Assembly (NCBI GenBank): GCA_041489925.1
Contig: JBGPSD010000003.1
Coordinates: 1,993 to 65,992, forward strand
Reading direction: 5' to 3'
Origin: Candidatus Nanoarchaeia archaeon
GTDB taxonomy: Archaea; Nanobdellota; Nanobdellia; Woesearchaeales; ARS49
Length of the DNA: 64,000 nucleotides
The notes beneath the pieces are model-generated. The model saw nothing but the letters and a program-made list of their open reading frames with translations, was not told where the DNA came from and did no database searches. The position numbers and the translations under genes were made by a program. This document shows, piece by piece, positions 17,205 through 39,272 of the stretch. Position 1 is the first letter of the stretch. The number at the start of each line of letters is the position of its first letter.

Positions 17205-17213
17205 CTCACAAGC

Positions 17214-19393: not shown

Positions 19394-19428
19394 GGCGTAC
19401 GCTCTATAATCCTGATAAAAATGAAAAA

Positions 19429-20217
19429 TTATTTCTTCTCAGCTGGCTTTGGCAAATTATATCCCTTGCAGGTTTCACCAATCAGCCATGCCTCGTCAAC
19501 CTTGCCCCTTTCATACATGCGTGACTCTTTGTCGCGCTCGGCAGTGACAAGCTCAGTGAGGCGTTCTTTGGTAAACCAGCAGTTTGCCTTGTCAACAAGC
19601 TTCCCAACTTTCTCGTCGAAAACAACCTTCTCCCCGCCTTTCGAGCATAGAGGCAACCGTACTGCATATTTAGTCAGGTTGACTATGCGTCCGCCGCCTG
19701 CGTTAACAGGACCCTGTGTGACAATCCCGCCTTCGAATTTCTCTACAGGAACGACTTTTGACATAATCTTGTACGCATCTTCGCCGTAAATCTCAACAAG
19801 CTGTTCGCCTGTGACAGGTCCGATAAGCTCTGTTCCGGAAATTCCCCAGTTTGCAGGCTGGTTGCCGAACTTTGCAGTGTCACAGCCTGTGAATCCGAGG
19901 TAGAACTTCATGTTGTTACAGTTGCTGTTCTGTGCTCCATTGAGCATTTTGACAAGATGGTTATAGTGCTCGTGTGCAGCAACATCCGCCTTTGCCGGCT
20001 TTGTGTTTGAAACTATAGTGTAAAGCCTTGAGAGCTCAGCAGCTTCTGAAGCATCGCGCTTTCCGTCTTTGTCAATCTCGAGAACCCTGTTCTCAATCTG
20101 GCTGATGTATTCGCAGGCCATTGCCTGTGGCGCCTTGGCTTGCTCTGGCTTTGTCTCCTGGCCTGCACAGCCAGCAAGTGCAACTGCAATCATTCCCAAT
20201 GTTGTTCTTATGCTCAT
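19429..20217 (-). CDS. Hypothetical lipoprotein
   Basis: Lipobox ALAGC; several Cys; GGGGGTAA ribosome site. Confidence 0.75.
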   Translation of the reverse strand: MSIRTTLGMIAVALAGCAGQETKPEQAKAPQAMACEYISQIENRVLEIDKDGKRDASEAAELSRLYTIVSNTKPAKADVAAHEHYNHLVKMLNGAQNSNCNNMKFYLGFTGCDTAKFGNQPANWGISGTELIGPVTGEQLVEIYGEDAYKIMSKVVPVEKFEGGIVTQGPVNAGGGRIVNLTKYAVRLPLCSKGGEKVVFDEKVGKLVDKANCWFTKERLTELVTAERDKESRMYERGKVDEAWLIGETCKGYNLPKPAEKK

Positions 20218-20304
20218 CTTCTGTTACCCCCTACATATTGTTCAAAAACATCACTATGACACTACTATTGAGTAGGTATTTTTAAAGCTTCGGGTTTTAG
20301 GGGT

Positions 20305-21396: not shown

Positions 21397-21428
21397 ATTC
21401 GTTTAACTGAAAAAATGTAAAAATAAAA

Positions 21429-23452: not shown

Positions 23453-24538
23453 ATGCGCATCGCTATCGTCGGGGCAGGGCCGTCTGGCAGTTATGCAGGC
23501 TTCCTCCTTTCAAAGGCAGGACACAATGTCACAATCTATGAAGACCACGAAAAAATAGGCGAGCCAATAGCGTGCACAGGGATTGTGACAAAAGCGCTTT
23601 TCGACCTTGTTGAATACAGCAAAGACTACATTATCAACGAGCTTGACGGCGTTGACATAATCGGGCCAAAAGGCGAAAAACTGCGCATTCCGCTGAAAGA
23701 ATACGTGCTTTGCAGGAAAAAGTTTGACAATTATCTTGCAAACAAAGCAAAAAATGCAGGCGCAAAAATACTGCTCAGCCACAGGTACACCGGAAGGGAA
23801 GGCAACACCCTAATTTTCAGGCATAACGGACAAATAGTCAAAAAAGAAACAGATATCCTCATCGGCGCAGACGGTCCTTTAAGCAAAGTCGCTGAAACTT
23901 CAGGGCTTGGAAAAAACAAAAACTTTTACGTTGGCCAGCAGGCGACAATCAAGGCAAAATATGACCCGAAAATATTCACAGTCTGGTTCGGCAGCATTGC
24001 CCCTGGATTTTTCGCGTGGAGCGTGCCTGAAAATTCAGAGTACTCGCGCATTGGCGTGGCGACAACAAAAGACAAGAACTGCGCACAATGCTTCCAGCGC
24101 CTGATGAAAATGTCAAAAGGAAAAATCACAGCAAGGCAGGCAGCACCAATCCCGTTGTACAACCATAAAAGAAAAGTGCAGAATGGCAGCACTTTCCTTG
24201 TCGGCGACGCAGCAGGCTTTGTCAAGGACACGACAGGCGGCGGAATCATCACAGGAATGCTCTCAAGCAAAGCCCTTGCTGAAAGCATAATCAGCAAAAC
24301 AAGCTACGAAAAGAACCTCAAGAAGCTGAGAAAAGAGCTCTGGCTCCACAGCAAGCTCAGGAGGATGCTTAACAAATTCTCAGACAATGATTACAGAAGG
24401 CTTATCAGGCTGATGTCAAACCAGAAAGTCAGGCGTATATTATATAGCCACCCGCGCGAATACCCATCCAGATTCCTCCTCAAGCTCCTGCTCGCAGAGC
24501 CGCGTTTAATTTATTTTGCGAAGCACGCATTTGCATAA
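23453..24538 (+). CDS. Geranylgeranyl reductase family flavoprotein
   Basis: IVGAGPSG, PIACTG, GADG, FFAWSVP, VGDAAG.VK.TTGGGI. Confidence 0.88.
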   Translation: MRIAIVGAGPSGSYAGFLLSKAGHNVTIYEDHEKIGEPIACTGIVTKALFDLVEYSKDYIINELDGVDIIGPKGEKLRIPLKEYVLCRKKFDNYLANKAKNAGAKILLSHRYTGREGNTLIFRHNGQIVKKETDILIGADGPLSKVAETSGLGKNKNFYVGQQATIKAKYDPKIFTVWFGSIAPGFFAWSVPENSEYSRIGVATTKDKNCAQCFQRLMKMSKGKITARQAAPIPLYNHKRKVQNGSTFLVGDAAGFVKDTTGGGIITGMLSSKALAESIISKTSYEKNLKKLRKELWLHSKLRRMLNKFSDNDYRRLIRLMSNQKVRRILYSHPREYPSRFLLKLLLAEPRLIYFAKHAFA

Positions 24539-24592: not shown

Positions 24593-27500
24593 ATGCCTGA
24601 AGACGACGAACTTTCAGTTGATTTTGGAAAAGTTGGCGATTGGTTCAAGAGAAAAAAGAAGCCCGAAGCAGAGCCAAAGCCAGAACACCAGCCTTCATTG
24701 CTCGCTGACAAGCACGCAGCAGCGCCGCACGAGCACCCGCCTGCAAGCGTTGAGAAAAAGGATGATGAGCTCAGCATTGATTTCTCAAAAATAAAATCCT
24801 GGTTTGCAAAAAAGGAGCATGAACCACAGGCTCATCAGCAAAAGAAGGAAGACGATGATATCTCGATTGACTTCTCAAAAATAAAGTCCTGGTTCACAAA
24901 AAAGGAGCATGCCGGCAAAGATGATGACAAAGAGGACCTTGGATTTGATTTCAGCAAGCCGTGGGCATGGATAAAAGCCCACCCCATCCTGATAATACTC
25001 GCAGTTCTCCTGATAATGCAGTTCGTTCCAAACAGGATTGATATTGGCGGCAAGGACTGGTACATGCCGTGGGGCGGGGTAAGCATGCGCCTAAGGAGCG
25101 AAAGCCTGCCAATGACAGACGGCTGGGCATCGAACCACGTCACAACCCTGCTCAAGAACCAGCTGGTTGACGCGATTAACAAGCAGTACCCAAACCTTCC
25201 TGACGAAAGAAAGCAAAAGCTGGTGAATGATGAATGGGACAAGGTATACAAGGAGCAGAAAGCCCAGATTGACCAGCAAATAGCTTCTGTCAACCAGCAG
25301 ATAAAGGAGTTCTGGATGTATGAAGCAGACGGCGTGAAATACACTTACATGCCTGACATTGACCCTTACACATACCTCAGGTATACCAGAAACCTGCTTG
25401 AGAAGGGCACGTATGCTGACGAAGTGAGGGACGGCAAATTAATCGACAACCATATGGTCGCGCCCTTGGGTGGCGGGATAAGCCGCGAGCTGCAACCATA
25501 CACTCTTCTGTGGCAGTACAAGATAATGCACATTTTCAGCCCGAAGATTGACCTTATGCAGGCAGCCTGTTATTTCCCAATAATATTCATCCTGCTCGCG
25601 CTGATTCCTGCGTTCTTCATCGGCAGGCGCTTTGCAGGAATTTCCGGAGGAATCATCACCGCAACAATGGTAGCAATACTGCCGTCAATTATTGTGAGAA
25701 CAGGCTGGGGCCACGCAGACACAGATGCTTACAACATTTTCTTCCCGCTCCTGTTGACCTGGCTTTACACGCTGATGATTGACGCAGAAGACCTCAAAAA
25801 GATTGTTGGATTGGGCGCATTGTCAGGGCTTGTTACGGGAATTTACTCTTTTGCCTGGCCTGGTGGCTGGTGGTATGTCTTTGATTTCATACTTGCTGCA
25901 TTCGGCATACTGGTCATAAGCGAAATTGCAAGGAACATCAAGCACAGGCAGAAGCTGATTGAAATAATAAAGAAGCGCGCAATCCTGTTAGTCACGTATA
26001 TAGCAGTTTCAGGAATATTTGTCAGCCTGTTTAGAAGCACCTCTGAGTTTTTCAATGCCCCGCTGGCGCCATTGGGATTTACAATCATCAAGGCAGCTGC
26101 GCACGTGAGCCTCTGGCCAAATGTTTACACCACTGTCGCAGAGCTCAACCCCACAGACCTTAACGGAGTCATCGGCTCTATGGGGGGATGGCTGTTCTTC
26201 TGGATTGCGGTTGCGGGAATGGCAATGCTCCTGATAAAGCGCTCAAACAATGAGTGGAAGTTTGATCTCAAGTATGCGCCCTTGTTTGTGCTCTGGTTCA
26301 TCGCAACGATTTACGCAAGCCTTAAGGGAGTCCGTTTCACATTGCTTATGGCTCCTGCATTCACAGTCGTGTTCGGAATTGCCCTTGGCAGGATTTACAA
26401 CTGGCTGGTCCGAATCAGCATAAAAGATTTGCATTTGAATGCAATAGTGGCTCATGCAGTGATGATTGTTATTGTGGTTCTGATGCTGTCAGGGCAGGCA
26501 AAAAGTGCCTATGACTCCTCAGGAAGCGACATTCCAATAATGAATGACGCCTGGTGGAGCACGCTCACCGCGATAAAGGCAGACTCAAAGCCTGACGCAA
26601 TAATCAACTCGTGGTGGGACTTTGGCCACCACTTCAAGTATGTCGCAGACCGCGCTGTCACGTTTGACGGCGCATCGCAGAACACCCCGCAGGCGCACTG
26701 GATTGGGAGAACGCTGGCAACTGACAATGAGACAGAGGCAGTCGGCATATTAAGGATGCTTGACTGCGGCTCCAATTCTGCATTCGATGTGATTAATGCC
26801 CAGTTCAATGACCCTGTAAAATCAGTCAATCTTCTCCGCAAGATTATCGTGGTTGACCGCAAGGCAGCGCTTGCAATACTCGCAAAGGACGGGGTTAATG
26901 AGCAGGAACAGGTATTGAAATTCACCCACTGCGACCCGCCCGAAGACTACTTCATAGCATCAGGCGACATGATTGGAAAGTCAGGCGTCTGGAGCCACTT
27001 TGGCTTCTGGAACTTTGAAAAAGCAAAGCTGTGGACGATCCTGAAGAACCAGCCGCAGGAAACAGCAGTGCAGTCAATGATGAGCGAGTGGAACTACACC
27101 AGCGAACAGGCAGAGCAGGCTTACTTTGACGTTCAGGCATTGGCCAATGAAAACGACGCAAACGCGTGGATTTCACCCTGGCTGGGCATACTTGGCGAGG
27201 CAGTTGACTGCGCAGCCCAGGACGACCTGATTGGCTGCGGAAACGGTTTCATAATCAACACCTCCAACAATGACGCGCGCATCAATACCGGCCAGGGGGT
27301 TGGCAAGCCAAGGGTTGTCATCCAGCCGACAGCAGACGGCGGATTCTCTGAAATCAAGTTTAACGACTCAAATACCGCGGTTGGAGTGCTTCTCTATCCG
27401 ACAGGACCAGGCGCTTACAAGGCGGTGTTAGGCTCTCCTGAGCTTTTGACAAGCATATTTGCCCGCCTTTACTTCCTTGAAGGCCACGGCTTGCAGCACT

Positions 27501-28006
27501 TTACTGCATTCAGCCAGCAGAGGGAATTAACAGGCGGCGGAATCTACACCTACAAGGTCAACTGGGCAGGCAACGCAACCAAAGTTTTCAGCGGCTTTGA
27601 AGCCCTGAAGGCTGCGAAGGAAGAAAACAAGACGAACAAAACAGAAAAGAAAGTTGAAAAGGGCGCAAAGGAAGGCGACACAGTGAGCGTTTACTACATC
27701 GGCTCCCTGCTTGATGGCAATGTGTTTGACAGTAGCATAAAGGACTGGAAGAAACAAGGCATCGTCGCGAATTCCTCATTTGACGATTATGAGCTTACAG
27801 GACCGTTGTCATTCAAAATAGGCGCAGGCCAGGTTATTGCGGGCTTTGATGCAGCAGTGCGCGGAATGGATATCAGCGATGAGCAGATTGTGCAGATTCC
27901 GCCCAAGGCAGCATATGGCCTTGACCCCAAGGCTCACGCCCTCGGCAACCAGACACTAAGATTCAAGATAAAGATGGTCCGCATAGAGCCTGCCGCAGCC
28001 AATTAA
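24593..28006 (+). CDS. aglB: Oligosaccharyltransferase AglB (STT3 family) fused to a C-terminal FKBP-type peptidyl-prolyl isomerase
   Basis: DIDPY, HADTD (DxD), TVAE, GVRF, SWWDFGH, DMIGK (DK motif); about 13 TM segments; C-terminal GDTVSVYYIGSLLDGNVFDSS..PLSFKIGAGQVIAGFD..GM..IPPKAAYG. Confidence 0.93.
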   Translation: MPEDDELSVDFGKVGDWFKRKKKPEAEPKPEHQPSLLADKHAAAPHEHPPASVEKKDDELSIDFSKIKSWFAKKEHEPQAHQQKKEDDDISIDFSKIKSWFTKKEHAGKDDDKEDLGFDFSKPWAWIKAHPILIILAVLLIMQFVPNRIDIGGKDWYMPWGGVSMRLRSESLPMTDGWASNHVTTLLKNQLVDAINKQYPNLPDERKQKLVNDEWDKVYKEQKAQIDQQIASVNQQIKEFWMYEADGVKYTYMPDIDPYTYLRYTRNLLEKGTYADEVRDGKLIDNHMVAPLGGGISRELQPYTLLWQYKIMHIFSPKIDLMQAACYFPIIFILLALIPAFFIGRRFAGISGGIITATMVAILPSIIVRTGWGHADTDAYNIFFPLLLTWLYTLMIDAEDLKKIVGLGALSGLVTGIYSFAWPGGWWYVFDFILAAFGILVISEIARNIKHRQKLIEIIKKRAILLVTYIAVSGIFVSLFRSTSEFFNAPLAPLGFTIIKAAAHVSLWPNVYTTVAELNPTDLNGVIGSMGGWLFFWIAVAGMAMLLIKRSNNEWKFDLKYAPLFVLWFIATIYASLKGVRFTLLMAPAFTVVFGIALGRIYNWLVRISIKDLHLNAIVAHAVMIVIVVLMLSGQAKSAYDSSGSDIPIMNDAWWSTLTAIKADSKPDAIINSWWDFGHHFKYVADRAVTFDGASQNTPQAHWIGRTLATDNETEAVGILRMLDCGSNSAFDVINAQFNDPVKSVNLLRKIIVVDRKAALAILAKDGVNEQEQVLKFTHCDPPEDYFIASGDMIGKSGVWSHFGFWNFEKAKLWTILKNQPQETAVQSMMSEWNYTSEQAEQAYFDVQALANENDANAWISPWLGILGEAVDCAAQDDLIGCGNGFIINTSNNDARINTGQGVGKPRVVIQPTADGGFSEIKFNDSNTAVGVLLYPTGPGAYKAVLGSPELLTSIFARLYFLEGHGLQHFTAFSQQRELTGGGIYTYKVNWAGNATKVFSGFEALKAAKEENKTNKTEKKVEKGAKEGDTVSVYYIGSLLDGNVFDSSIKDWKKQGIVANSSFDDYELTGPLSFKIGAGQVIAGFDAAVRGMDISDEQIVQIPPKAAYGLDPKAHALGNQTLRFKIKMVRIEPAAAN

Positions 28007-28059
28007 TGTGATTTCTTTATCCATAACCTTAATAAACCAACCTTTGCTCGTTTCCGTCT

Positions 28060-28752
28060 ATGGGGAATAAGGTATTTATCGTAATTGCAGCGTATAATGA
28101 GCAGAATTCTGTACCCAAAGTCATCAAGGAGCTTCAAAAGGCAGGATACAAGGATATTGTGGTTGTTGATGACGGCAGTAAAGACAAAACTTTCGAGGCA
28201 GCATTGAATGCAGGCGCAACAGTACTGCAGCACATCATAAACCGCGGCCAGGGCGCTGCATTAAAAACAGGTATTGATTATGCATTGGAGCAGGGCGCTG
28301 ACATCATCGTGACTTTTGACGCTGACGGCCAGCACCGCGTGGAAGACATTCCGGCAATGATAAAGCCTGTTGCGGGCGGAAAGGTTGACGTGACATTTGG
28401 CTCAAGATTCCTTACAAAGAAATCGCAGGAAAATGTCCCTTTTGTCAGGAAAGCCTGCCTCAAGGGGGGAATCCTTGTGCTTTGGCTCTTTTATGGCGTC
28501 AGAATGACAGATGCGCACAATGGCTTCCGCGCGCTCTCAAGAAATGCCGCGGAAAAAATCAGAATCACATCAGACCGCATGGCTCATGCCTCTGAAATAG
28601 TTGAGGAAGTCCACCGCCTTGACCTGAAATACAGGGAAGTACCTGTGGTCATCCGCTATACAGAGGAAACCTTGAAGAAGGGGCACGGCTCTTTCATGGA
28701 AGGAGTCAGGATACTTTACACGATGATTATGAAAAAATTCCTTTTGAGGTGA
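28060..28752 (+). CDS. GT2 glycosyltransferase, DPM1-like (polyprenyl-phosphate sugar synthase)
   Basis: AYNE, VVDDGSKD, NRGQGAA, FDADGQH, GSRF, TDAHNGFR. Confidence 0.9.
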   Translation: MGNKVFIVIAAYNEQNSVPKVIKELQKAGYKDIVVVDDGSKDKTFEAALNAGATVLQHIINRGQGAALKTGIDYALEQGADIIVTFDADGQHRVEDIPAMIKPVAGGKVDVTFGSRFLTKKSQENVPFVRKACLKGGILVLWLFYGVRMTDAHNGFRALSRNAAEKIRITSDRMAHASEIVEEVHRLDLKYREVPVVIRYTEETLKKGHGSFMEGVRILYTMIMKKFLLR

Positions 28753-28756
28753 AAAA

Positions 28757-29095
28757 ATGAACATATCAGTCTTGCAGGTTATTGTTGTTGTGTTCGCACT
28801 GTTCGCATGGAGCCGCGCAATGCTCAGGCTGCGCGACAGGCATATTTCATTCAGCGAGTTCCTTTTCTGGACCATAATCTGGGCTGCGGTCATTGTCACC
28901 TCAGTATTGCCTCAGACTGCTGATGTTGTTTCAAAGTTCTTAGGCATCAGCAGGCCGATTGACCTTGCGGTGTACGTCAGCATCCTCTTGCTGTTCTACC
29001 TAGTATTCCGCATTTACGTGAACCAGGACAAGCAGGCGCAGGAAATGACAAAGCTCGTGAGGGAAATTGCAGTCAAGCTGCCAAAGCAAAAATGA
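28757..29095 (+). CDS. DUF2304-family membrane protein
   Basis: Three TM segments, LGISRPID, TKLVREIA; typical partner downstream of a DPM1-like GT2. Confidence 0.8.
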   Translation: MNISVLQVIVVVFALFAWSRAMLRLRDRHISFSEFLFWTIIWAAVIVTSVLPQTADVVSKFLGISRPIDLAVYVSILLLFYLVFRIYVNQDKQAQEMTKLVREIAVKLPKQK

Positions 29096-30207
29096 AAATA
29101 CCCTTAATGCGCTGGATTGATAGGGTTGTCGGCACCATGCTGATAATCCCCATCTGGCGCATATCATTGCCGTTTCCAAAGGCAAAGCTTGAGACAAAGC
29201 GCATTCTCATAATCAAGCTCTGGGCATTGGGAGAAAGCCTGCTGACCTTGCCGATGATACAGGCAATAAAAAAGAAGTATCCAAAAGCAACAATTGATGT
29301 CCTTTGCAGAAGCAGGGTAAAGTCTGTTTACTCAGGCCAGAAATTCATAAGCAGCATAATCAGCGCAGAGCCATTGCATTGGATTGCACTAATTCCCCGG
29401 CTCAGGAAATACGACATCGCGATTGACTGCGAGCCATATCTTAACATCTCAGCACTGCTTGCGTGGTGGCTTGGCAGGCGCAGGATTGGCTTCAGCCACG
29501 GAATCCGCAGCCTGCTTTACACTGACAAAATCAAATATAATGACCAGCAGCACATCACTCTCACTTACATGGACATGGGCGCCCCAATCGGTGTTTCAGG
29601 TGTCCCAGAGCGCCTTGTCCCTGTCGCAACCACCCCTCAGGACGAGAAAAAAGTCCAGTCCCTGTTCAAAGAATGGGGAATCAAAAAGACTGACAAGGTG
29701 GTGTGTATTGCCCCAGGAACTGCAGAGTCATCAAAAAGCAGGATTTGGCTTGCAAAGCGCTTCGCAAAAGTCGCTGACGCGCTTGTGAAAGAGTTCCTTG
29801 TGAAAATAATCATCAGCGGAACAAAAGGGGAGCGCGGTTTCGCAGAGGAAATCGCGAAAAACATGAATTACACCCCGATAATTGCAACAGGAGAGACAAA
29901 TGTCAAGGAATTCGCAGCAATGCTCAAGCGCTGCGCATTAATGATTGGCAATGACTCAGGGCCAATGCACCTCTCAGCGGCAATGGGCACGAAAACAATA
30001 GGCCTTTTTTGCCCGAACACGCCTGTAAGATGGGCGCCTTATGGTCCTGGCAATGATTACGTCTACAAGCCTGTGCTTCCAAAGCCATGCATTAACACGC
30101 ACCTCGGCCAGATGCCTGAGTGCAAGGGCCACAATCACATGAGCTTAATAAAGAGCAGTGATGTGATTGAAAAAGCAAGGAGAATGCTACATGCAGGACA
30201 TAATTAA
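29092..30207 (+). CDS. GT9 family glycosyltransferase (heptosyltransferase-like)
   Basis: IIKLWALGE, APG..RIW, NDSGPMHLSAAMG..LF.P. Confidence 0.88.
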   Translation: MKIPLMRWIDRVVGTMLIIPIWRISLPFPKAKLETKRILIIKLWALGESLLTLPMIQAIKKKYPKATIDVLCRSRVKSVYSGQKFISSIISAEPLHWIALIPRLRKYDIAIDCEPYLNISALLAWWLGRRRIGFSHGIRSLLYTDKIKYNDQQHITLTYMDMGAPIGVSGVPERLVPVATTPQDEKKVQSLFKEWGIKKTDKVVCIAPGTAESSKSRIWLAKRFAKVADALVKEFLVKIIISGTKGERGFAEEIAKNMNYTPIIATGETNVKEFAAMLKRCALMIGNDSGPMHLSAAMGTKTIGLFCPNTPVRWAPYGPGNDYVYKPVLPKPCINTHLGQMPECKGHNHMSLIKSSDVIEKARRMLHAGHN

Positions 30208-30760
30208 GAGCGAAATTCAGGGCTCAATCGCCACAAAGCAGGAAGTTCTTGCAAAGCTGGTCCCTGATTTGGAAAAAACCGCAAATATCCTGATTAATGC
30301 CCTGAAAAACAACAATAAAGTCCTTGTCTGCGGCAATGGCGGCTCAGCAGCAGACGCCCAGCATTTCGCAGCAGAGCTCATTGTCCGCTTTGAGACAGAG
30401 AGAAAGGCGCTTCCTGCAATTGCTTTGACAACTGACTCAAGCATTCTTACTGCAGGAGCAAATGATTATGGCATTGACACTCTTTTTTCGCGCCAAATAG
30501 AAGGATTAGGCAGCAAGGGCGATGTCCTGATAGCAATTTCAACCTCAGGAAACTCGCCCAATATCCTCAAAGCGATAGAGGCTGCAAAAAAGAAAGGAAT
30601 GGAAGTCATTGGCTTGACAGGCAGGGATGCTGGAAAGATGAAATCCCTGCAAATCAACAACATAATCATCCCGTCGCAAATCACAGCAAGAATCCAGGAA
30701 TCTCACATAATGGCAATCCACATCTGGTGCAAATTAATTGATGGGGCATTTAGGCAATAA
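30191..30760 (+). CDS. gmhA: Sedoheptulose-7-phosphate isomerase
   Basis: CGNGGSAADAQHFAAEL, NDYG, STSGNS, RIQESH. Confidence 0.93.
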   Translation: MQDIIKSEIQGSIATKQEVLAKLVPDLEKTANILINALKNNNKVLVCGNGGSAADAQHFAAELIVRFETERKALPAIALTTDSSILTAGANDYGIDTLFSRQIEGLGSKGDVLIAISTSGNSPNILKAIEAAKKKGMEVIGLTGRDAGKMKSLQINNIIIPSQITARIQESHIMAIHIWCKLIDGAFRQ

Positions 30761-30804
30761 ACTTTTAAAGCAAGGTATTGATTGGTTTATCAGGAGTAAA
30801 AATA

Positions 30805-31290
30805 ATGGGAAAGATTGTAACGCGCGAGGAACTTGCAAAAATTGTTGCTGACTTGAAAAATCAGGGTAAAAAGATAGTTACCACCAACGGCACTTTTGAC
30901 CTGATGCACATAGGCCACGTGCGCGCATTGCAGCAGGCAAAATTATTTGGCGATATTCTTATCGTTGGCGTCAATTCTGACAGTTCAGTGAAGCAGTACA
31001 AAGGTGATAAGCGACCAGTAATACCTGAAAAAGAGAGGGCAGAAATGATTGCCTCAATAAGCTGTGTTGATTACGTGACAATCTTCAGTGAAAAAGACCC
31101 GCGCGCACTACTTGAAATTGTCAAGCCAAATTTCCACGTCAAGTCAGGCGACTGGGCTCCAGAGAAGATGATTGAAACAGAAATAGTCAGGAAGAACGGC
31201 GGAGAGGTCAAGATTGTGCCGTTCATAGGCAACTTCTCAACAACCAACATTATCCACAAAATCCGCGAAGTTTACAAGGATACGCCCTGA
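30805..31290 (+). CDS. hldC: D-glycero-beta-D-manno-heptose-1-phosphate adenylyltransferase (RfaE domain II)
   Basis: TNGTFDLMHIGH, GVNSDSSV..YKG..RP, VDYVTIF, STTNII. Confidence 0.85.
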   Translation: MGKIVTREELAKIVADLKNQGKKIVTTNGTFDLMHIGHVRALQQAKLFGDILIVGVNSDSSVKQYKGDKRPVIPEKERAEMIASISCVDYVTIFSEKDPRALLEIVKPNFHVKSGDWAPEKMIETEIVRKNGGEVKIVPFIGNFSTTNIIHKIREVYKDTP

Positions 31291-31336
31291 TAGCGACACC
31301 TTTTTAAACACTACTATTCTGGCTTCGTCGGGGGAG

Positions 31337-31449
31337 TGTCAAGAACCGCCAGTAATGGATACTATTGTAGCGGTTCTTGAGCATGCTCGGAAACTCCGTG
31401 CTCATCCAACAGGATGAAGCAAATTGTTTCCGTGCAGGAGTTTCCGACA
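31337..31449. repeat. Double-hairpin palindromic element between hldC and hldA
   Basis: TCAAGAACCGC/GCGGTTCTTGA and TCGGAAACTCC/GGAGTTTCCGA (two perfect 11-bp inverted repeats) joined by palindrome GAGCATGCTC and closed by TGTC/GACA. Confidence 0.8.
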
Positions 31450-31450
31450 T

Positions 31451-32398
31451 ATGGATACTGCGATAATTGACAAGTTCATTGAAAAGACAATTCTTGTCCT
31501 TGGCGATGTTATGCTCGACAGGTATATCTGGGGCAATGTCGCGAGGATTTCGCCTGAAGCCCCTGTGCCTGTTGTTGAAGTGCAGAACGAGACCTATGCC
31601 CCTGGCGGAGCCGCAAATGCGGCGAACAACATTGTCACGCTTGGTGGAAAGGCAGTGCTTGTCGGAATGGTCGGCGATGACCTTCACGAGGAAATTCTTG
31701 TCAAAGAGCTCGAACAGCGCGGAATTGCCTCGCAACTGGTGCTTGACAGCCGCCCAACAACCACAAAAATAAGGGTTATGGGCATGAAGCAGCAGCTCCT
31801 GAGGATAGACTACGAGCACAAGCACCCGATTGATGAGGAAACAGGAAAAAGAATCATTGACGTGATGAAAGACACCCCTTCTGACGGGATAATAATCTCA
31901 GACTATGCAAAAGGAACTATCACGCAGCAGCTTTACAATGACATACTCCACCTTGCAGAGGCGCTCAAAATCCCTGTTTTCGTTGACGTAAAGCCAAGGC
32001 GCCAGATAAATTATGCAGGGGCGACTGTTGTCAAGACAAATACCAAGGAAGCCTGCGAACTGGCAGGAGTTGAGGAGCACAATGGCGACCAGATTGAGGA
32101 AATAGGCAAAAAGCTTGTCCAGGACCTGAAGTCCAATGTAGTAATAACGCAGGGGGCAAAGGGAGTGAGCATTTTCAGCAAGGATGGAAACATCACTCAC
32201 ATTCCAACAAAGGCAAAGCAGGTCTTTGACGTGACAGGCGCAGGAGACACTTTCCTTGCCGCGTTCGCACTGGCATTTGTAAGCGGCGCAAGCCTGGAAG
32301 ATTCTGCAACAATAGCCAACCACGCAGCAGGAATCAAGGTAGGCAAGGTCGGAACTGCAAGCGTCACTGCAGAAGAACTAAGGCAGGATTTGGAATGA
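31451..32398 (+). CDS. hldA: D-glycero-beta-D-manno-heptose-7-phosphate kinase (RfaE domain I, PfkB family)
   Basis: GDVMLDRY..RISPEAPVPV, PGGAANAA, QQLLRID, ISDYAKG, DVTGAGDT. Confidence 0.92.
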   Translation: MDTAIIDKFIEKTILVLGDVMLDRYIWGNVARISPEAPVPVVEVQNETYAPGGAANAANNIVTLGGKAVLVGMVGDDLHEEILVKELEQRGIASQLVLDSRPTTTKIRVMGMKQQLLRIDYEHKHPIDEETGKRIIDVMKDTPSDGIIISDYAKGTITQQLYNDILHLAEALKIPVFVDVKPRRQINYAGATVVKTNTKEACELAGVEEHNGDQIEEIGKKLVQDLKSNVVITQGAKGVSIFSKDGNITHIPTKAKQVFDVTGAGDTFLAAFALAFVSGASLEDSATIANHAAGIKVGKVGTASVTAEELRQDLE

Positions 32399-32459
32399 TA
32401 AAGCGCGCAATCACCAAGGCAGGGGCAATCATGCTTATTGCAGAAATGAGGCAAAGAAA

Positions 32460-33182
32460 ATGAAAATCTCAGTTGTCATTCCTGCATACAACGAGGAAAA
32501 GCGCCTTCCGAATGCGCTCAGGCAGGTTCAGCGCCACCTTGACCGCAAAGGAGGGGATTATGAGATACTCGTGGTCAATGACGGCAGCAGGGACAGTACT
32601 CAGAAGGTTGTAAAGGAAGCGATGCAGAAGAACAAGCGCATCAAGCTGCTGGAGAATGGGCGCAACCGCGGAAAGGGATACACTGTAAGGCACGGAATGC
32701 AAAAGGCCAAGGGTGACTGGGTGTTGTTCACTGACGCAGACATGTCCACTCCAATACGCGAGCTTGACCGCTTCATGGAGCACACAAAGGACCATGAAAT
32801 CATAATCGGCTCGCGCAACCTTTCACAGTCGCAGATTACGGTAAAACAGCCAAAATTCCGCCAGCTTGCAGGCAAAACATTTCCGTTTGTGGTTCGCGTC
32901 CTTCTTGCCCTGCCAATAAAGGACACGCAGTGCGGGTTCAAGCTGTTCAGCAGGAAAGCTGCAAAGGAATTGTCCTCAATGCAGCGCCTTGAGCGCTGGG
33001 CATTTGATGCAGAGCTGCTGTTCATTGCAAACAGGCGCGGCTATAAAATCAGGGAAGTGCCTGTGGAGTGGGCAAATGATCCCGCAAGCAAACTTAATAT
33101 CGTTGGGGATTCCTGGCGGATGTTCTGCGAGATTCTCCGCGTGAGGAAAAACGCGGCACTTGGATATTACCCGCCCAGATAA
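32460..33182 (+). CDS. GT2 dolichyl-phosphate glycosyltransferase (ALG5/DPG synthase-like)
   Basis: IPAYNEE, NDGSRD, NRGKG, FTDADMSTP, DTQCGFKLF, FDAELL. Confidence 0.9.
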   Translation: MKISVVIPAYNEEKRLPNALRQVQRHLDRKGGDYEILVVNDGSRDSTQKVVKEAMQKNKRIKLLENGRNRGKGYTVRHGMQKAKGDWVLFTDADMSTPIRELDRFMEHTKDHEIIIGSRNLSQSQITVKQPKFRQLAGKTFPFVVRVLLALPIKDTQCGFKLFSRKAAKELSSMQRLERWAFDAELLFIANRRGYKIREVPVEWANDPASKLNIVGDSWRMFCEILRVRKNAALGYYPPR

Positions 33183-33186
33183 GCAA

Positions 33187-34761
33187 ATGAGAAAAGAAAT
33201 AATGCTCGGCATTGGCATTGCTTTGCTGTATTTCGTGGTCCTGCTCATCCAGCTTCCTGATTACGGCATTACCTGGGATGAGCCAATACAATACTCCTCA
33301 GGGCAGGCGTACACCGAGTACTTCAGCGGCAAGCCGCTTGTTGTTGGTGAAATCTCAAACATTGCAAACTACGGCCCTTTCATGGACATTATGGGCTCAT
33401 ACTCCTACATTATCCTGAGCAAGAATCTTGGGCTGATGGACCCGATTTCAGCGCACCGCGTGCCCACTGCATTCATGGCGGCGATTGCTGTTCTTGTTGT
33501 TTATTTGTTTGCCCTGCGCTATTACAACCTTTTTATTGCGATAATCAGCGCATTGGCGCTCGCCTGCTATCCTCATTTTTTTGCGCACGCCCATTTCAAT
33601 GTCAAGGACATCCCTATGGCAGGGATGTATACATTAGTGCTTGTCTTGTGGCACGAAGCCACCCTGAGAAAGAGCTGGAAGTGGTCAATTGCTGCAGGTG
33701 TTGCGCTCGGGCTTGCCGGCGCCACCAAGTTCAATGCCGCATTCATCCCCATTGTGCTGGTTTTGTGGTGGCTGGTGGCATTCCGCGACAAGCTCAAAGT
33801 GGACGGCAAGTTCGTGATCCCAAAACGGTGGGACATTATTGCAGGATTTCTTGTTTCAATCCCTGTCGCAGTCCTTGCCTGGCCGTGGCTGTGGTTTAGC
33901 ACTGTTGAACACGTAAAGGGCATCATTCAAACTTTCTCAAGTGTGGCTAAAGGCTTTGTGGTATTTTACTTTGGCCAGGGATATTCGTCTGGTGTTGATG
34001 TTCCATGGCATTATCCATTCGGCTACCTGTATGCTGTGACGCCGGTGATACTACTGATACTCGCGGTTATTGGGTTCATCATCGCGGTATATGACACAAA
34101 GACACTGAAGAACCGCGCATCAGTACTGGTTTTGCTGTGGTTTCTTGTCGCAACGCTAAAAATCAGCTTCTCAGGAATGGTTTATGACGGAATCAGGCAG
34201 TTCTTTGAGGTCGTTCCTGCGCTTGCCCTGTTCGCAGGCATGGGCGCATGGTTCTGCTTCAGGCTGTCCCGCAGTTTTACTAAAAACATTCTTTCAGCCG
34301 GCAAGTCGCAAGCCGCATTTGGAATCATCCTGCTGCTTTTGCTTTGGCCCACGCTTAGCGCAATGCACCGCCTTCATCCGTATGAAAGCAGTTATTACAA
34401 CGGCTTCATTGGCGGCACGCAAGGCGCTGTTGGCAATCTGCGCGTGAGCTACTGGGGAGAGCCTATAAAAGAAGGCGCAGAATGGCTCAACAAGAACGCA
34501 GAGCGCAATGCGCGCATCAATGCGCTTGAGGTGCCGAATCTCGTACTGTATTATACGCGGCCTGACCTTAGGGTTGGAATGGGGGATGGCGGCGATTACA
34601 TAATTACGCTGAACGCATTCCCTGCCCAGGCGCTGCACACAGTGTATGCCGATGGAGTGCCTATCCTTAATATTTATAAAGCCAATCCGAATGGCAACTT
34701 CACTGATTATAACGTAGAAGATGGCATTGACATCTTCTACAAACACGAGATAAAAAAATGA
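33187..34761 (+). CDS. GT-C fold (ArnT/PMT-like) membrane glycosyltransferase
   Basis: YGITWDE, HFNVKD, ATKF, VPWHY, YDGIRQF, HPYE..YYN; multi-TM. Confidence 0.82.
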   Translation: MRKEIMLGIGIALLYFVVLLIQLPDYGITWDEPIQYSSGQAYTEYFSGKPLVVGEISNIANYGPFMDIMGSYSYIILSKNLGLMDPISAHRVPTAFMAAIAVLVVYLFALRYYNLFIAIISALALACYPHFFAHAHFNVKDIPMAGMYTLVLVLWHEATLRKSWKWSIAAGVALGLAGATKFNAAFIPIVLVLWWLVAFRDKLKVDGKFVIPKRWDIIAGFLVSIPVAVLAWPWLWFSTVEHVKGIIQTFSSVAKGFVVFYFGQGYSSGVDVPWHYPFGYLYAVTPVILLILAVIGFIIAVYDTKTLKNRASVLVLLWFLVATLKISFSGMVYDGIRQFFEVVPALALFAGMGAWFCFRLSRSFTKNILSAGKSQAAFGIILLLLLWPTLSAMHRLHPYESSYYNGFIGGTQGAVGNLRVSYWGEPIKEGAEWLNKNAERNARINALEVPNLVLYYTRPDLRVGMGDGGDYIITLNAFPAQALHTVYADGVPILNIYKANPNGNFTDYNVEDGIDIFYKHEIKK

Positions 34762-35855
34762 TAAAGCAGATTGTAAGGACAATCACGATAAAACAAAAGC
34801 CCGTGCCGGTTGTAAACCCCACAAAAATCTGCATTTTCAAGATGGGGGCAATAGGCGACATAATCCTGACAACGCCAATGGTTCACGCGCTGAGGCAGCG
34901 CTATCCAAAGGCGCGGATTGACTACTGGGTCGGGCAGTGGGCTTCAAAAGCCCTCAAGGGAAACAAGGATGTAAGCCATGTTTTCGTTTTTGATGATGCC
35001 ACATTCATCAACAAGCGCGTTGACCTGGTGATAGCGCTCGCAAGGCAGATTGCGGCCCAGCGCTATGACGCAATGTTCATACTTGACAAGCACTGGTCAT
35101 TGGGCACATTTGGCAGGCTGTGCAATGTGCCAATAAGAATAGGCTTTGACCGCGAGGGAGAGGGGTTTGCGCACACAATCACTGTCCCATTCGGCCCTGC
35201 AAAGCACGAAGTGGATTACTACCTGCAATTGGCTTACAAGGCTGGAGCGAAAAAAGTTGCCCAGCCCAAGCTTGAATTCGAGCTCAGCAATGAAGACAAG
35301 CAGTTTGCAAAGAATTTTTTTGCAGCCCACAATCTCAACCCGAAAAAAACAATCGGAATCATCCCTGGCGGCGCAAAAAACCCAGGTCAGGAACTGCCGA
35401 TAAAGAGGTGGCCTGCTGAATATTACGCCATTGTCGCGCAGGCTTTGGAAAAAGAAGGATGGCGGATAATACTCATTGGAAGGTCTCCTGGCGATGATGA
35501 CGCACTGCAGATAATGAAGGAAACAGTGCCAAATGTTGTCAGCGCAATCAGCAACCTCACATTGCAGCAGTCAGGGGCATTGATGCAGAAATGCAGGATG
35601 ATAGTCTGCAATGACTCAGGACCCCTGCATATGGCGGCTGCAGTGGGCACGCCGACTGTCGCAATCTTCGGCCCGACAGACCCAAAGCGCTGGGCTCCAA
35701 GGGGCAAAAACCATTTGTGGATATGGAACCGCATTGAATGCACCCGCGCAATGATGTACGGTAAGTATGACTCTCCTGGATTGAGGGAAAATATCCTTAA
35801 AGTGCAGCCAAAGCACGTTCTCAAGGCAGTTCATAAGCTGCTGAAACAAAAATGA
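34758..35855 (+). CDS. GT9 family glycosyltransferase (heptosyltransferase-like)
   Basis: KMGAIGDIIL, HEVDY, KRWP, NDSGPLHMAAAVG..FGPTDP. Confidence 0.9.
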   Translation: MIKQIVRTITIKQKPVPVVNPTKICIFKMGAIGDIILTTPMVHALRQRYPKARIDYWVGQWASKALKGNKDVSHVFVFDDATFINKRVDLVIALARQIAAQRYDAMFILDKHWSLGTFGRLCNVPIRIGFDREGEGFAHTITVPFGPAKHEVDYYLQLAYKAGAKKVAQPKLEFELSNEDKQFAKNFFAAHNLNPKKTIGIIPGGAKNPGQELPIKRWPAEYYAIVAQALEKEGWRIILIGRSPGDDDALQIMKETVPNVVSAISNLTLQQSGALMQKCRMIVCNDSGPLHMAAAVGTPTVAIFGPTDPKRWAPRGKNHLWIWNRIECTRAMMYGKYDSPGLRENILKVQPKHVLKAVHKLLKQK

Positions 35856-37492
35856 ACCGCGAACAAATTATTGAAATTGCGTTCCTGCTTATAATTTTTG
35901 GGGGCTTGCTTTACATCGGTCCAGGAGAGGTTTTCCAGCACAAACTAATTCATGAAAAGTCAGTGCAGTTCGGCGCAACAGACGGCTTCCTGTACGTCAT
36001 GCTCACAAGGCATGTTGCAGAGGCAGGCAATTTCCGCTACAATCCTTTCTACAGCGTTGCAGGCTTCAATGACTCAATCGCATATCATCCGCCATTAATG
36101 ATGCACATTGCAGGGGCATTTTCCCGCCTAAGCGGCTTGGAGGCGCATGATTCAATTTCGCTCATGATGGCGCTGTGCGCAATTTTCGGCGCGTTTATGA
36201 TTTACTGGCTGATAAGGGGCTTTAACAAGACTGTCGCGATTCTTGCCGCCCCTCTTTTCGTGTTCCTTTACATCAACAAATTCATCATAGGGTATGCCTG
36301 GGGTGAGGCGCTTCTTTATGGCGGCAGTTTTTTCCTTGTCGCGCTGTTCTTTTTGATGAGCAAGCCCGAACTTAAGCATTGGTGGGTGCCTGCAGGAATA
36401 CTCATAGGGGCTGCAATGAGCACCCACACCAGCGAGGCAATATTTTTTTACGGCTTTGCTGTCTTTTATATTGCCATGAAATTTTTGCTGAAGAAGCTTA
36501 CAAAAAGTGAGCTCAAGTGGCTTCTCAGGCAGCTTTGCCTTGCAACAATTCTCGCACTGGCTCTCTCATTTAACTATTTAATAATATTTTATAACGGCTA
36601 TTACCAGATTACCGGCGGATCATACACATCTCTAAGGGCAGTGAGCCCTGAGGAATTTGAGGCAATACGTGTTCCGCCATTGAATGACTTCAAATGGTTT
36701 GCAATGGCTGCAATCATCATAGGCGCAGTGGTTGCCCTGCTTCTTGCGCGCAAAGACCCGCATACAGCGCTCCTTGCAGCGGGATTCATGTTTCTTGTTG
36801 GGCTTACCAACTATGTCGGTCTGCATTACCGCGCATTCCAGACCCGCTTCCTGTGGCCGATATACCTTGCCTTGTTTTTTGGACTGGCGGTTTATTTCGT
36901 GCTGAAGCAGGTCCGCGTGGGAGGCGTCATTGTTCCTGCAATAATCGGGATTGCCATTGCTGCATTTTTCATCCATTCATACTACATCCAAATGCATCCT
37001 GACATGATTTATGACGGCCAGTGGGAGGGATTCAAGTGGGTTGAGAAGAACACCCCTGAAAGCGCAAGGACGCTTTTCACATACGGCGACGGTTACAGCC
37101 AGAGCCTGAGGCTGATTCAGCGCCAAGTTTTCCTGCTTGACCCGAATGACCTTATTGCAATTGCGCAGGAAGGAAAATTGCGCCGGATGATCAGGGCAGA
37201 CCCGATTCTGGTGAGCGAGATGTACCTGATTTACCGCAAAAGCCTGTTTGACTTTGGCTTTTACGGCAGGGAGCAGAACCTGACAATTTTCAACGCGCCG
37301 ATGGACGTGTGCGGGTTTGATTATTATGTGGTTGACCGCCAGAGCGCGTATGCGCCGCAGCTCGCGCAGATTGCCGCACAGGTGGCAAGCGTGATTCTAA
37401 CACACAATGCAACTCCTGTCTTCCAGAATGACCAGATTGTGATACTGAAAAACAACAATGTGGGGGGTGAATGCCTTGGCGAACCACAGTGA
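35852..37492 (+). CDS. GT-C-like multi-pass membrane protein, paralog of 39262-40881
   Basis: Multi-TM; TD..YHPPL, W...NTP...R; C-terminal ILKNN..G.C shared with 39262-40881. Confidence 0.65.
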   Translation: MNREQIIEIAFLLIIFGGLLYIGPGEVFQHKLIHEKSVQFGATDGFLYVMLTRHVAEAGNFRYNPFYSVAGFNDSIAYHPPLMMHIAGAFSRLSGLEAHDSISLMMALCAIFGAFMIYWLIRGFNKTVAILAAPLFVFLYINKFIIGYAWGEALLYGGSFFLVALFFLMSKPELKHWWVPAGILIGAAMSTHTSEAIFFYGFAVFYIAMKFLLKKLTKSELKWLLRQLCLATILALALSFNYLIIFYNGYYQITGGSYTSLRAVSPEEFEAIRVPPLNDFKWFAMAAIIIGAVVALLLARKDPHTALLAAGFMFLVGLTNYVGLHYRAFQTRFLWPIYLALFFGLAVYFVLKQVRVGGVIVPAIIGIAIAAFFIHSYYIQMHPDMIYDGQWEGFKWVEKNTPESARTLFTYGDGYSQSLRLIQRQVFLLDPNDLIAIAQEGKLRRMIRADPILVSEMYLIYRKSLFDFGFYGREQNLTIFNAPMDVCGFDYYVVDRQSAYAPQLAQIAAQVASVILTHNATPVFQNDQIVILKNNNVGGECLGEPQ

Positions 37493-37901
37493 GGCAAGAC
37501 CAGCGGAACCGCAGTTACGCGCTGCCTTGCATAATAAGACACAAATAACTCAGGAACTGAAATGGCTCGCCCTTGGCTATGTGGCGCTGAGCATTGCATT
37601 CTTTGTTGCATTCCAAAAAACTGAAACCGGAGCCCTGCTGCGCGCCACGGCAAGCATTTACTGGATGTTTGTCCTGCCTGGCTACGCGCTCTCGTTGTGC
37701 TCACGTCAGGGCTTTGTGGAAAGGTTTATAATAGGGGTATCAGTGCAGGCAGCTGTGTTTGGTCTTGCAAGTTATTATGCAGGACTGCTCGGCTGGCACG
37801 TGGCAACGCACGGCTTGGTGCTGCCATTTCTGAGCATAATAATCGGAATAATACTGTGGTGGAAGCGTGAAAAAACTGACAATCGTCATGCCGGTGTTTA
37901 A
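37476..37901 (+). CDS. Small membrane protein (DUF1616-like)
   Basis: FVLPGYAL..ERFIIG; probable TTG start after GGGGGTGA; paralog of 40878-41213. Confidence 0.6.
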   Translation: MANHSEARPAEPQLRAALHNKTQITQELKWLALGYVALSIAFFVAFQKTETGALLRATASIYWMFVLPGYALSLCSRQGFVERFIIGVSVQAAVFGLASYYAGLLGWHVATHGLVLPFLSIIIGIILWWKREKTDNRHAGV

Positions 37902-38559
37902 CGAGGCAAATACAATCCGCACAATACTGAAGCGCGTGCAGGATGTAAAGCTTCCTGTCAAAAAGGAAATAATAATCGTTGATGATTTCTCAACAGACGG
38001 CACGCGCGGCATCCTGAAAAGGCTAAAGGGCGTCAGGGTTTTGTACCATACAAGGAACAGGGGAAAGGGCGCTGCAATACGCACAGGGCTTGAGCATGCC
38101 ACAGGAGACATCATCACAATCCAGGACGCTGACCTTGAGTATGACCCCCGCGATTACGCAGTCCTTCTTGAGCCGATTCTTGCAGGCAGGGCAAAAGTGG
38201 TTTATGGCTCAAGGTTCAAGGGGCACCTGCTTAGCAGGGAAACACTGACAATCCCGACCCACTACATAGGCAACAGGTCACTTTCACTTGTGACAACCTT
38301 GCTTTACGGCCAGTGGGTAAGCGACATGGAAACCTGCTACAAGATGTTCACGCGAGAGGTCCTTAACAAGCTTCATCTGACTGCTGAGCGCTTTGATTTC
38401 GAGCCTGAAATAACAGCGAAAATACTGAAGCTGGGCCACAGGATACATGAAATACCAATCCACTTTCACCCGCGCGACTGGAAGCACGGCAAGAAGATAA
38501 ACTGGCGCGATGGCATCAAGGCATTGTACTGCCTGGTCAAATACAGAATAATGGACTGA
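37867..38559 (+). CDS. GT2 glycosyltransferase, DPM1-like
   Basis: PVFNE, VDDFSTDGT, NRGKGAA, QDADLEYDP, DMETCYK, FEPEIT. Confidence 0.9.
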   Translation: MKKLTIVMPVFNEANTIRTILKRVQDVKLPVKKEIIIVDDFSTDGTRGILKRLKGVRVLYHTRNRGKGAAIRTGLEHATGDIITIQDADLEYDPRDYAVLLEPILAGRAKVVYGSRFKGHLLSRETLTIPTHYIGNRSLSLVTTLLYGQWVSDMETCYKMFTREVLNKLHLTAERFDFEPEITAKILKLGHRIHEIPIHFHPRDWKHGKKINWRDGIKALYCLVKYRIMD

Positions 38560-38561
38560 GC

Positions 38562-39272
38562 ATGGCAGAAAACACTGGCAAAGAGACATTGGAGCGCATA
38601 AAGCCAATGCGCAATTACAACCGCTGGATTTATGAGAGGATTGCGCCTTTTGTCGGACAGCGCGTGCTTGAGGTGGGCTGCGGCATTGGCAACATGTTCC
38701 AGTTCTTCGCTGACCGAGAGCGCGTTGTCGGAATTGACATTGACCCAAAGCAGGTTGCAATGATAAAAAAAGCATTCAAAGGAAAGGAAAATATTCGGTT
38801 CGCTGTTGAAGACATTGAAAAGATTGATGTTAAAAAATATGCGCGCGAGAAATTTGACACAATTATCTGCCTTAATGTGCTTGAGCACATAAGGAATGAC
38901 GCAAAGGCATTGCGGATTTTTCAGAGGATTCTCGCCCCTGGCGGAACCCTTGTTCTGCAGATTCCGGCGCACAAATTCCTTTACAGCACCCTTGACAGGG
39001 GGCTGTCTCATTTCAGGCGCTATACGCGCAAGGGTTTGCTTTCAAAAACAATGCGGGCAGGCTTCACAACAGCACACTGCTCTTACATGAACATTTTCGG
39101 CATTCCCGGCTGGTTTGTCAATGGCAGATTATTACGAAGGAACATCCTTCCTGCCGGGCAATTAAAGGGTTTTGACAGGCTCCTGCCTATCCTGAAGCGC
39201 CTTGACCGCGCATTCAACCGCGTGGCAGGATTATCAATCATTTACGCAGGGAGGAAGCAGCATGGAGCGTAA
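38562..39272 (+). CDS. Class I SAM-dependent methyltransferase
   Basis: VLEVGCGIG, NVLEHI, L.PGG, HFRRY. Confidence 0.88.
   Translation: MAENTGKETLERIKPMRNYNRWIYERIAPFVGQRVLEVGCGIGNMFQFFADRERVVGIDIDPKQVAMIKKAFKGKENIRFAVEDIEKIDVKKYAREKFDTIICLNVLEHIRNDAKALRIFQRILAPGGTLVLQIPAHKFLYSTLDRGLSHFRRYTRKGLLSKTMRAGFTTAHCSYMNIFGIPGWFVNGRLLRRNILPAGQLKGFDRLLPILKRLDRAFNRVAGLSIIYAGRKQHGA

Follow-up and report, generated by a model that had tools for sequence, protein, structure and literature searches.

A gene on the forward strand of contig JBGPSD010000003.1 from Candidatus Nanoarchaeia archaeon (order Woesearchaeales) encodes an AglB-type oligosaccharyltransferase (OST) whose chain continues into an FKBP-type peptidyl-prolyl cis-trans isomerase (PPIase) domain. 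It lies at 24593..28006 (+) of the window, by which we mean the whole stretch of 64,000 nucleotides (nt) that was analysed. The gene is a single intact open reading frame (ORF) of 1137 amino acids (aa) with an ATG start and no internal stops, and its start, MPEDDELSVDFGK, is common to the closest relatives. Behind a disordered repeat tail at the N-terminus, the Pfam domains follow each other in the order STT3 (PF02516; aa 248-632, 113.7 bits against a cut-off of 24.5, E 1.9e-32), STT3-PglB_core (PF21436; aa 671-722, 25.8 bits against a cut-off of 23) and FKBP_C (PF00254; aa 1024-1128, nt 27662-27976, 64.2 bits against a cut-off of 21.1, E 1.4e-17). An AlphaFold2 (AF2) model, for which an alignment of 116 sequences served as input, reached a mean pLDDT of 89.8 and a pTM of 0.82. 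Its FKBP domain is well defined, and aa 1-92 and 103-114, with a pLDDT <50, are predicted to be disordered. The coordinates of all parts are collected in Table 1.

An intact frame joining AglB to FKBP

The original prediction, which was made from the DNA letters alone, had described an intact AglB with four motifs. All four are present: D255-I-D257, TVAE at 514-517, WWDFG at 674-678 and the DK-type motif D740-P-V-K743. A second acidic motif, D376-T-D378, was found as well. We take both DxD motifs and T-x-x-E to provide the acidic metal/acceptor-binding residues, as in the PglB/AglB literature. In the alignment, D257, D376, D378, E517 and W674-W675-D676-x-G678 are invariant (116/116), D255 is kept in 106 of the 116 sequences, and D740-P-V-K743 appears as DxxKSV in the consensus. 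P509 and N510, close to the catalytic E517, are also invariant, and the outer AglB domain carries conserved cysteines at 725, 780, 873 and 882. PDB sequence searches with the window protein returned STT3A, PglB and many FKBPs, and a profile built from the 116 aligned sequences also reached the AglB of Archaeoglobus fulgidus. Foldseek aligned the model with PglB (6gxc; E 6e-22, TM 0.68 on target), with AglB (7e9s) and with human and yeast STT3 (STT3A), at a probability of 1.00 for 6gxc, 8pn9 and 7e9s. By family profile, GT-C fold, acidic residues and the WWDYG and DK motifs, the protein is a member of the STT3/AglB/PglB family. It does not fall into the archaeosortase-A-associated STT3 subfamily (NCBIfam TIGR04154), for which it scored 58.1 bits against a cut-off of 450. 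The window gene is the only STT3 match across the 1.06-Mb, 25-contig, 99%-complete genome (Woesearchaeota type). The sequence evidence thus shows it to be the predicted sole AglB-type OST of the cell, with a catalytic site that looks intact.

Like AglB (A. fulgidus, 3waj/5gmy/7e9s) and PglB (Campylobacter lari, 3rce/5ogl/6gxc), the window protein consists of a GT-C membrane domain and an outer globular domain, and it shares with them the DxD, the second DxD, T-x-x-E and WWD(Y/F)G motifs, profile matches, and Foldseek E-values of 6e-22 to 3e-12. Unlike these solved enzymes, it adds a C-terminal PPIase, an approximately 100-aa helical insertion in loop 1 and a 125-aa, repeat-bearing cytoplasmic tail. 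A PPIase domain is described in none of the solved OSTs among the PDB/Foldseek matches listed.

The predicted in-frame Lys/Glu linker between AglB and FKBP was confirmed. A helix is predicted at aa 1000-1020 of this linker (AF2). The spacing from W991 to G1028, which comprises 36 residues in the window protein, has a median of 19 aa across the 116 sequences (range 10-57), with 13% K and 13% E in the linker. The domain behind it belongs to FKBP by both the FKBP_C profile and the fold. Its closest PDB sequence matches are 1ix5, 3jxv and FKBP25, and Foldseek of the tail returned FKBP13 (4nnr; TM 0.82 on target), FKBP12 and FKBP25, with TM values of 0.70-0.82 on target. As reference for the pocket we took Y26, F36, D37, F46, V55, I56, W59, Y82 and F99 of FKBP12, presumably the residues that form it. 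Their counterparts, located via PDB alignments, are Y1035, F1045, D1046, F1074, V1081, I1082, F1085, Y1108 and F1124, with F1085 being a Phe in place of the FKBP12 Trp. Most of them are strongly conserved among the 116 sequences (Y1035 in 114, F1045 in 105, D1046 in 115, F1074 in 99, I1082 in 98, F1085 in 107, Y1108 in 113 and F1124 in 116); V1081 is more variable, with Val in 63/116 and M, L or I otherwise. The predicted catalytic site of the FKBP domain thus looks intact.

MtFKBP17 presumably possesses an insert-in-flap chaperone domain. The window FKBP resembles this archaeal protein (1ix5, the best PDB sequence match, E 1e-11) in an extra loop after FDSS and in the Phe for the FKBP12 Trp. 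It differs in that its alignment with 1ix5 breaks off at residue 83 of the 151 in that chain, where the insert would begin. We read this end as a probable absence of the insert-in-flap domain from the window FKBP; an insert of the SlyD/MtFKBP17 type was not found, and the last strand follows A1107-Y-G after only about 12 residues. Pfam detected neither SurA_N nor Rotamase in the window protein, which places it outside the PpiD/PrsA/SurA type.

No hydrophobic segment follows aa 650, beyond which the maximal 19-residue Kyte-Doolittle mean is 1.23. Therefore, FKBP and the AglB globular domain should share one side of the membrane, which we take to be the outside, as in the solved homologous enzymes. 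The model superposes on PglB, STT3 and AglB structures, and the extracytoplasmic C-terminus of the original prediction stands: the FKBP domain is placed on the outer face of the membrane by its predicted topology. Sequons are enriched in this domain (2.44 per domain against 0.69 in shuffles), including a conserved one in the loop after FDSS, which would fit an outer, glycosylated domain.

A homologue search gave 704 matches. Among the 120 listed, 93 carry STT3 plus FKBP_C, at 89% down to 37% identity, and most of these are named Woesearchaeota or Nanoarchaeia. We assembled a set of 259 relatives, including the 150 best cluster representatives from an exhaustive search. According to phmmer, 122/259 possess a C-terminal FKBP, down to 35% identity and always ending <=30 aa from the C-terminus; these calls include the divergent tails P0086, P0089 and P0096, which have no precomputed PF00254 (P0086 also has no FKBP_C in its own scan). 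These three, together with P0129, P0155, P0203 and P0101, were left out of the 116-sequence alignment (A1). At the level of reads, a check over the junction had been set beforehand. Logan contigs from four sediment runs (X1 and X2 may be the source sample) showed 0 differences and 0 indels over 26800-28300, and a record of run X4 (record 12), a sample not flagged as possible source, spans 27568-27729 and thereby crosses the linker. A stop or frameshift between the two domains, which had been named as a refutation, is absent from the window and from these contigs; one relative shows a frameshift. This is the 76%-complete genome G047, in which AglB (804 aa) and the FKBP part (338 aa) are encoded in two frames overlapping by 13 nt (L007 476-3894), a split that we consider a putative frameshift from a sequencing error or a decaying gene. 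Assembly or gene calling that artificially joined two separate genes could be argued from the two frames of G047, but it is refuted by the single joined frame in >100 independent assemblies and by the indel-free contigs of four runs, and we regard it as practically excluded. Taken together, the AglB-FKBP fusion is real and conserved. Fused AglBs also occur in records named as bacteria (Dojkabacteria, Firmicutes, Dehalococcoidia; P0037, P0101, L041 and L042), which are probably binning errors in metagenome-assembled genomes.

Three PPIase folds at one position of AglB

FKBP is not the only PPIase at this position. A parvulin replaces it at the C-terminus of 9/259 relatives (confirmed by Pfam for P0083, P0228 and P0256), and one relative, P0247, ends in a cyclophilin (PF00160, 2e-45). 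The remaining 127 stop at query position ~990-1000 and are PPIase-free.

We then surveyed 151 genomes drawn evenly from the order of the window (~136 families). The tallies take in the unpublished genomes G121 and G132, neither of which is among the fused cases. This AglB type was found at E <=1e-20 in 132/151 genomes. FKBP_C lies inside the AglB frame in 16 of the 151, plus G047 with its overlapping second frame; a parvulin does so in another tally of 16 (in G051 confirmed as one ORF of 1067 aa), and a cyclophilin in a single genome (G074, 1116-aa ORF). AglB is therefore joined to a PPIase in at least 34/151 genomes (17 FKBP, 16 parvulin, 1 cyclophilin), a lower bound, because 29 FKBP matches fall outside those listed. 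Among the matches listed, every PPIase in a frame of >=1000 aa resides in AglB: 15/15 for FKBP, 15/15 for parvulin and 1/1 for cyclophilin (31/31). When coordinates were compared by eye in this sample, no separate PPIase gene was found adjoining an unfused AglB, except in the frameshifted G047. Three cyclophilins located 14-16 kb from AglB (G150, G025 and G031) were considered as linked genes and taken as chance.

In a phylum-wide sample of 401 genomes, searched with query aa 960-1137, FKBP occurred in a frame of >=1000 aa in 38 genomes, all of them labelled own, same genus, same family or same order; four matches labelled 'same class' were in frames of only 193-309 aa. The family of the window accounts for 21 of these among its 28 genomes, including the unpublished G324 and G455. 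The ESM Atlas contains one STT3+FKBP_C cluster (67 members) and one STT3+Rotamase cluster (149 members).

We calculated a FastTree tree from the AglB part only, with the PPIase tails removed (254 rows, 759 columns; 6 proteins <800 aa left out). FKBP requires 16 changes on this tree, at least 14 of which are forced by well-supported branches, and parvulin requires 9 changes for its 9 rows. All PPIase labels together need 26 changes, compared to a mean of 91 after shuffling. The clade of the window protein carries FKBP in 94/99 rows. Gains and losses are not distinguished by the tree, and its FastTree support counts for less than a bootstrap; the scatter of fusions over many families in the genome sample points in the same direction as the recurrence on the tree.

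A search with the cyclophilin end of P0247 led to further STT3-cyclophilin proteins (P0262-P0264) and to a distinct AglB type, shorter at 925-949 aa (P0302, P0305, P0317 and P0327), in which an AglB_core-like domain is followed by a C-terminal cyclophilin. Members of the clusters of this shorter type are named Nitrososphaera sp. or Thaumarchaeota, and single ORFs with STT3 plus Pro_isomerase were found in 'Candidatus Nitrososphaera sp. FF02' (917 aa) and 'Cenarchaeum sp.' (887 aa). The loci are L021 501-3254 and L043 462-3125, in records named Nitrososphaera, Nitrososphaeraceae and Cenarchaeum; L052 was left out because of 2 stops in the given frame. Many other Nitrososphaera records match the AglB part alone (residues 1 to ~760), so the fusion is patchy in Nitrososphaerota, too. 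To judge from these sequences, it has arisen there independently, via cyclophilin.

The original prediction knew of no described STT3-FKBP fusion. For the literature this held within the scope searched, and for the databases it did not. The architecture is common in public protein sets, where it carries automatic names such as 'FKBP-type peptidyl-prolyl cis-trans isomerase', 'peptidylprolyl isomerase' or 'STT3 domain-containing protein'. A full-text literature search, the scope of which did not extend to supplements or to Nikolayev et al. 2020 (AglB evolution), found no published description of an OST-PPIase fusion, nor did a term look-up in a 2024 review of archaeal N-glycosylation, the Agl24 paper and a 2025 paper on the Nitrososphaerota glycoproteome. 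An AglB with a built-in, interchangeable PPIase module is a variant on the known AglB-type enzymes.

A PPIase tail was also observed on a protein of another kind. Genome G072 encodes a 749-aa multi-span protein (L005 2800-5049, minus strand) with a weak PMT_2 match and a C-terminal cyclophilin (2e-55). As an AglB it was rejected, being dissimilar to AglB and to the PMT_2 proteins of the window; it may represent a further GT-C enzyme to which a PPIase is attached.

Genomic neighbourhood and accessory features

The genome that contains the window has three FKBP matches and one small parvulin, and a profile search detected no cyclophilin match in it. One FKBP-like protein, 330 aa long, is encoded on contig C10 (L004 862-1854, minus strand). 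It has a membrane anchor at its N-terminus, matches FKBP_C weakly (1.4e-5) and contains numerous N-x-S/T sequons; by these features it is probably a second outer FKBP-like protein. Another, a 264-aa FKBP on contig C23, has no signal sequence. Relatives encode separate proteins of 400-626 aa that combine SurA_N with Rotamase (parvulin).

Table 1. Parts of the fusion protein and flanking genes; positions refer to the window.
Feature	Position	Strand	Evidence
Geranylgeranyl-reductase family flavoprotein, upstream	23453..24538	+	NCBIfam TIGR02032 (180.5 bits vs 158.8); Pfam FAD_binding_3, GGR_cat
N-terminal tail, cytoplasmic, aa 1-125, with repeats DDELSxDF(S/G)K..WF.KK	24593..24967	+	Regex scan, AF2 pLDDT
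AglB membrane (GT-C) domain, aa 126-645	24968..26527	+	Pfam STT3, hydropathy segments (aa 127-640), AF2 helices, invariant acidic residues
AglB extracytoplasmic globular domain, aa 646-995	26528..27577	+	Pfam STT3-PglB_core, Foldseek, conservation
K/E-rich linker, aa 996-1025, with two NKT sequons	27578..27667	+	AF2, spacing across 116 sequences
C-terminal FKBP-type PPIase domain, aa 1026-1137, plus stop codon	27668..28006	+	Pfam, PDB sequence matches, Foldseek, pocket residues
Glycosylation cluster downstream of AglB	28060..39272	+	Pfam, NCBIfam

The flavoprotein upstream is possibly a polyprenol/dolichol reductase, which could have a role in dolichol saturation. The downstream cluster comprises a PpgS/AglJ-like GT2, DUF2304, two GT9 heptosyltransferase-like genes, GmhA and RfaE domains II and I, as well as further GT2s, two PMT_2 GT-C enzymes and a methyltransferase. 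A predicted ADP-heptose pathway, composed of GmhA and both RfaE domains, lies here beside an archaeal OST, and together with the GT9 genes it hints at a heptose-containing glycan.

On the minus strand (14674-23321), a run of probable surface proteins was noted: an Ig-like/DUF2207_C protein, two NPCBM_assoc proteins, one LRR protein and a protein of 630 aa that matches no Pfam family but has one membrane helix and a Pro-rich stretch. Pro-rich surface proteins next door had been proposed as clients of the fusion, and this part of the original prediction was not borne out. The two Pro-rich neighbours, at 18596-19393 (8.7% Pro, 0 sequons) and 21429-23321 (6.3% Pro, 5 sequons; background 4.47% Pro), are both encoded on the strand opposite to AglB, and few prolines lie near sequons: in the six neighbours together, Pro occurs within 5 residues at 3/13 sequons.

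Two further features of the AglB part itself were observed. The N-terminal tail contains four copies of its motif, at aa 10-18, 63-71, 93-101 and 119-127, the fourth reaching into the membrane domain and ending at nt 24973. Relatives have one to three copies, whether PPIase-bearing or PPIase-free, and a regex scan of the genome did not find a motif of the DDELSxDF(S/G)K type in any ORF but this one. The motif could bind a partner or the membrane surface. The clade-specific insertion in external loop 1 (aa ~150-250, window ~25040-25340) has three long predicted helices, an invariant QYPNLPD at aa 198-204, and few sequons (0.06 against 0.55 in shuffles).

A proposed role for the tethered isomerase at the glycosylation site

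An isomerase joined to AglB could serve the OST in the following way. AglB would act on unfolded, newly exported chains, and the tethered PPIase would encounter these chains a few nanometres at most from where they are glycosylated; there it would catalyse the isomerisation of Xaa-Pro segments or at least bind them. The outcome could be either faster folding straight after glycan transfer, or sequon-bearing and Pro-containing segments that are kept accessible to AglB. We consider it fairly probable that the FKBP domain, held on AglB by a short charged linker, is such an extracytoplasmic foldase acting on the unfolded substrates of AglB. Because three unrelated folds, which share only peptidyl-prolyl binding/isomerisation, interchange at one site, the property under selection would best be explained as a prolyl-isomerase or proline-peptide-binding function beside the OST, and not as the FKBP fold as such. 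A coupling between glycosylation and the proline-dependent folding of exported proteins is thereby suggested. The coupling had been part of the original prediction; it was strengthened by the parvulins and cyclophilins that replace FKBP at the same position, and it has lost the neighbouring clients proposed for it.

OSTs disfavour sequons with prolines nearby. Ost3/Ost6 (TUSC3/MagT1) are thioredoxin-like oxidoreductase subunits of the OST that act on cysteines and are thought to keep substrates glycosylation-competent; they are separate polypeptides. The window protein resembles them in having an accessory folding-catalyst module on the OST, and differs in that its PPIase domain is within the same chain. 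With the foldases PpiD, PrsA and SurA it has in common an extracytoplasmic PPIase held at the membrane near the export site. These, however, are equipped with an anchor of their own and with a SurA_N chaperone domain. The window protein lacks both, AglB serving as its body. A third comparison is human FKBP11, which at the ribosome-SEC61-OST-A translocon also places an FKBP fold on the lumenal (outer) side beside STT3 while chains are emerging (PMC12804085; 9n9j). In contrast to FKBP11, which is a separate, substrate-recruited protein with its own anchor, read by the authors as an adaptor with a buried pocket (PMC12804085), the window FKBP is covalently fused and its pocket is conserved. Also unlike FKBP11, the FKBP on AglB is interchangeable with parvulin or cyclophilin in relatives.

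Several observations weigh against a foldase that works with AglB. Human FKBP11, the FKBP known beside OST-A, is not an isomerase in its authors' reading, its nominal catalytic site being buried (PMC12804085). The PPIase is missing from 127/259 relatives, and sister sequences often differ, so the domain can be dispensed with and has often been lost or gained. No residue of AglB was found to track PPIase presence; frequency differences common to the two PPIase sets reached ~0.34 at most. Finally, the notion that the AglB fusion is the only extracytoplasmic PPIase of the cell was rejected in view of the anchored FKBP-like protein on C10.

The strongest rival, although an unlikely one in our judgement, is that AglB is an anchor of convenience. 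It would merely offer its outer C-terminus to a general foldase for all exported proteins, one that has to be membrane-bound because the cell lacks a closed periplasm and that is unconnected with glycosylation. The PPIase-free half of the relatives and the lack of co-varying AglB residues speak for such an arrangement. In the order sample, moreover, a parvulin (PF00639) match is absent from 12/16 AglB-FKBP genomes compared to 37/135 others, a pattern that fits substitution for a SurA_N-parvulin foldase, in genomes that are kin and with counts that carry no statistical test. But a single N-terminal helix suffices for anchoring and is used in this way in these very genomes, by the SurA_N-parvulins and the C10 protein. 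Mere convenience also sits badly with the 31/31 listed PPIases in long frames that are all found in AglB, and with the renewed, independent choice of AglB in Nitrososphaerota.

We give little credence to a non-catalytic adaptor, in which FKBP would dock the Sec translocon, an S-layer protein or a regulator. The precedent is FKBP11, which recruits CCDC134 to human OST-A (PMC12804085), and its structure (9n9j) is among our fold matches. A docking surface shared by three unrelated folds is unlikely, however, their common ground being proline-peptide binding and catalysis, and the residues of the FKBP pocket are strongly conserved. Hardly to be expected, finally, is an action in cis on AglB itself, either as folding help for its outer domain or by isomerising the invariant P509 of external loop 5 to gate catalysis. 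The linker is short, and P509 and N510 are invariant beside the catalytic E517, but close PPIase-free relatives keep the same loop, and neither prolines nor other residues specific to PPIase-bearing AglBs were found in the relatives compared.

Returning to the foldase tethered to AglB, its significance lies in what it would say about N-glycosylation. Three unrelated prolyl isomerases on the same point of AglB, in two archaeal phyla, amount to gene-fusion evidence of the 'Rosetta-stone' kind for a link between isomerisation and N-glycosylation. How OSTs gain access to sequons before folding, and how they are coordinated with folding catalysts, has been studied mostly in the eukaryotic multi-subunit OST; here, one polypeptide is enough for testing the link. 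Database names are corrected by the finding as well, since fused AglBs of 1000-1100 aa are often labelled only 'peptidylprolyl isomerase'. A bolder version, which we put forward tentatively and hold to be rather doubtful, is that N-glycosylation at the export site has a rate-limiting partner in prolyl isomerisation. The fused PPIase would then raise sequon occupancy or widen the sequon context, and archaea would have welded a PPIase of any fold onto their OST at least twice at the phylum level and many times within Woesearchaeales. If true, these proteins would be a single-chain counterpart of the accessory subunits of the eukaryotic OST and a natural test bed for whether proline geometry limits glycosylation.

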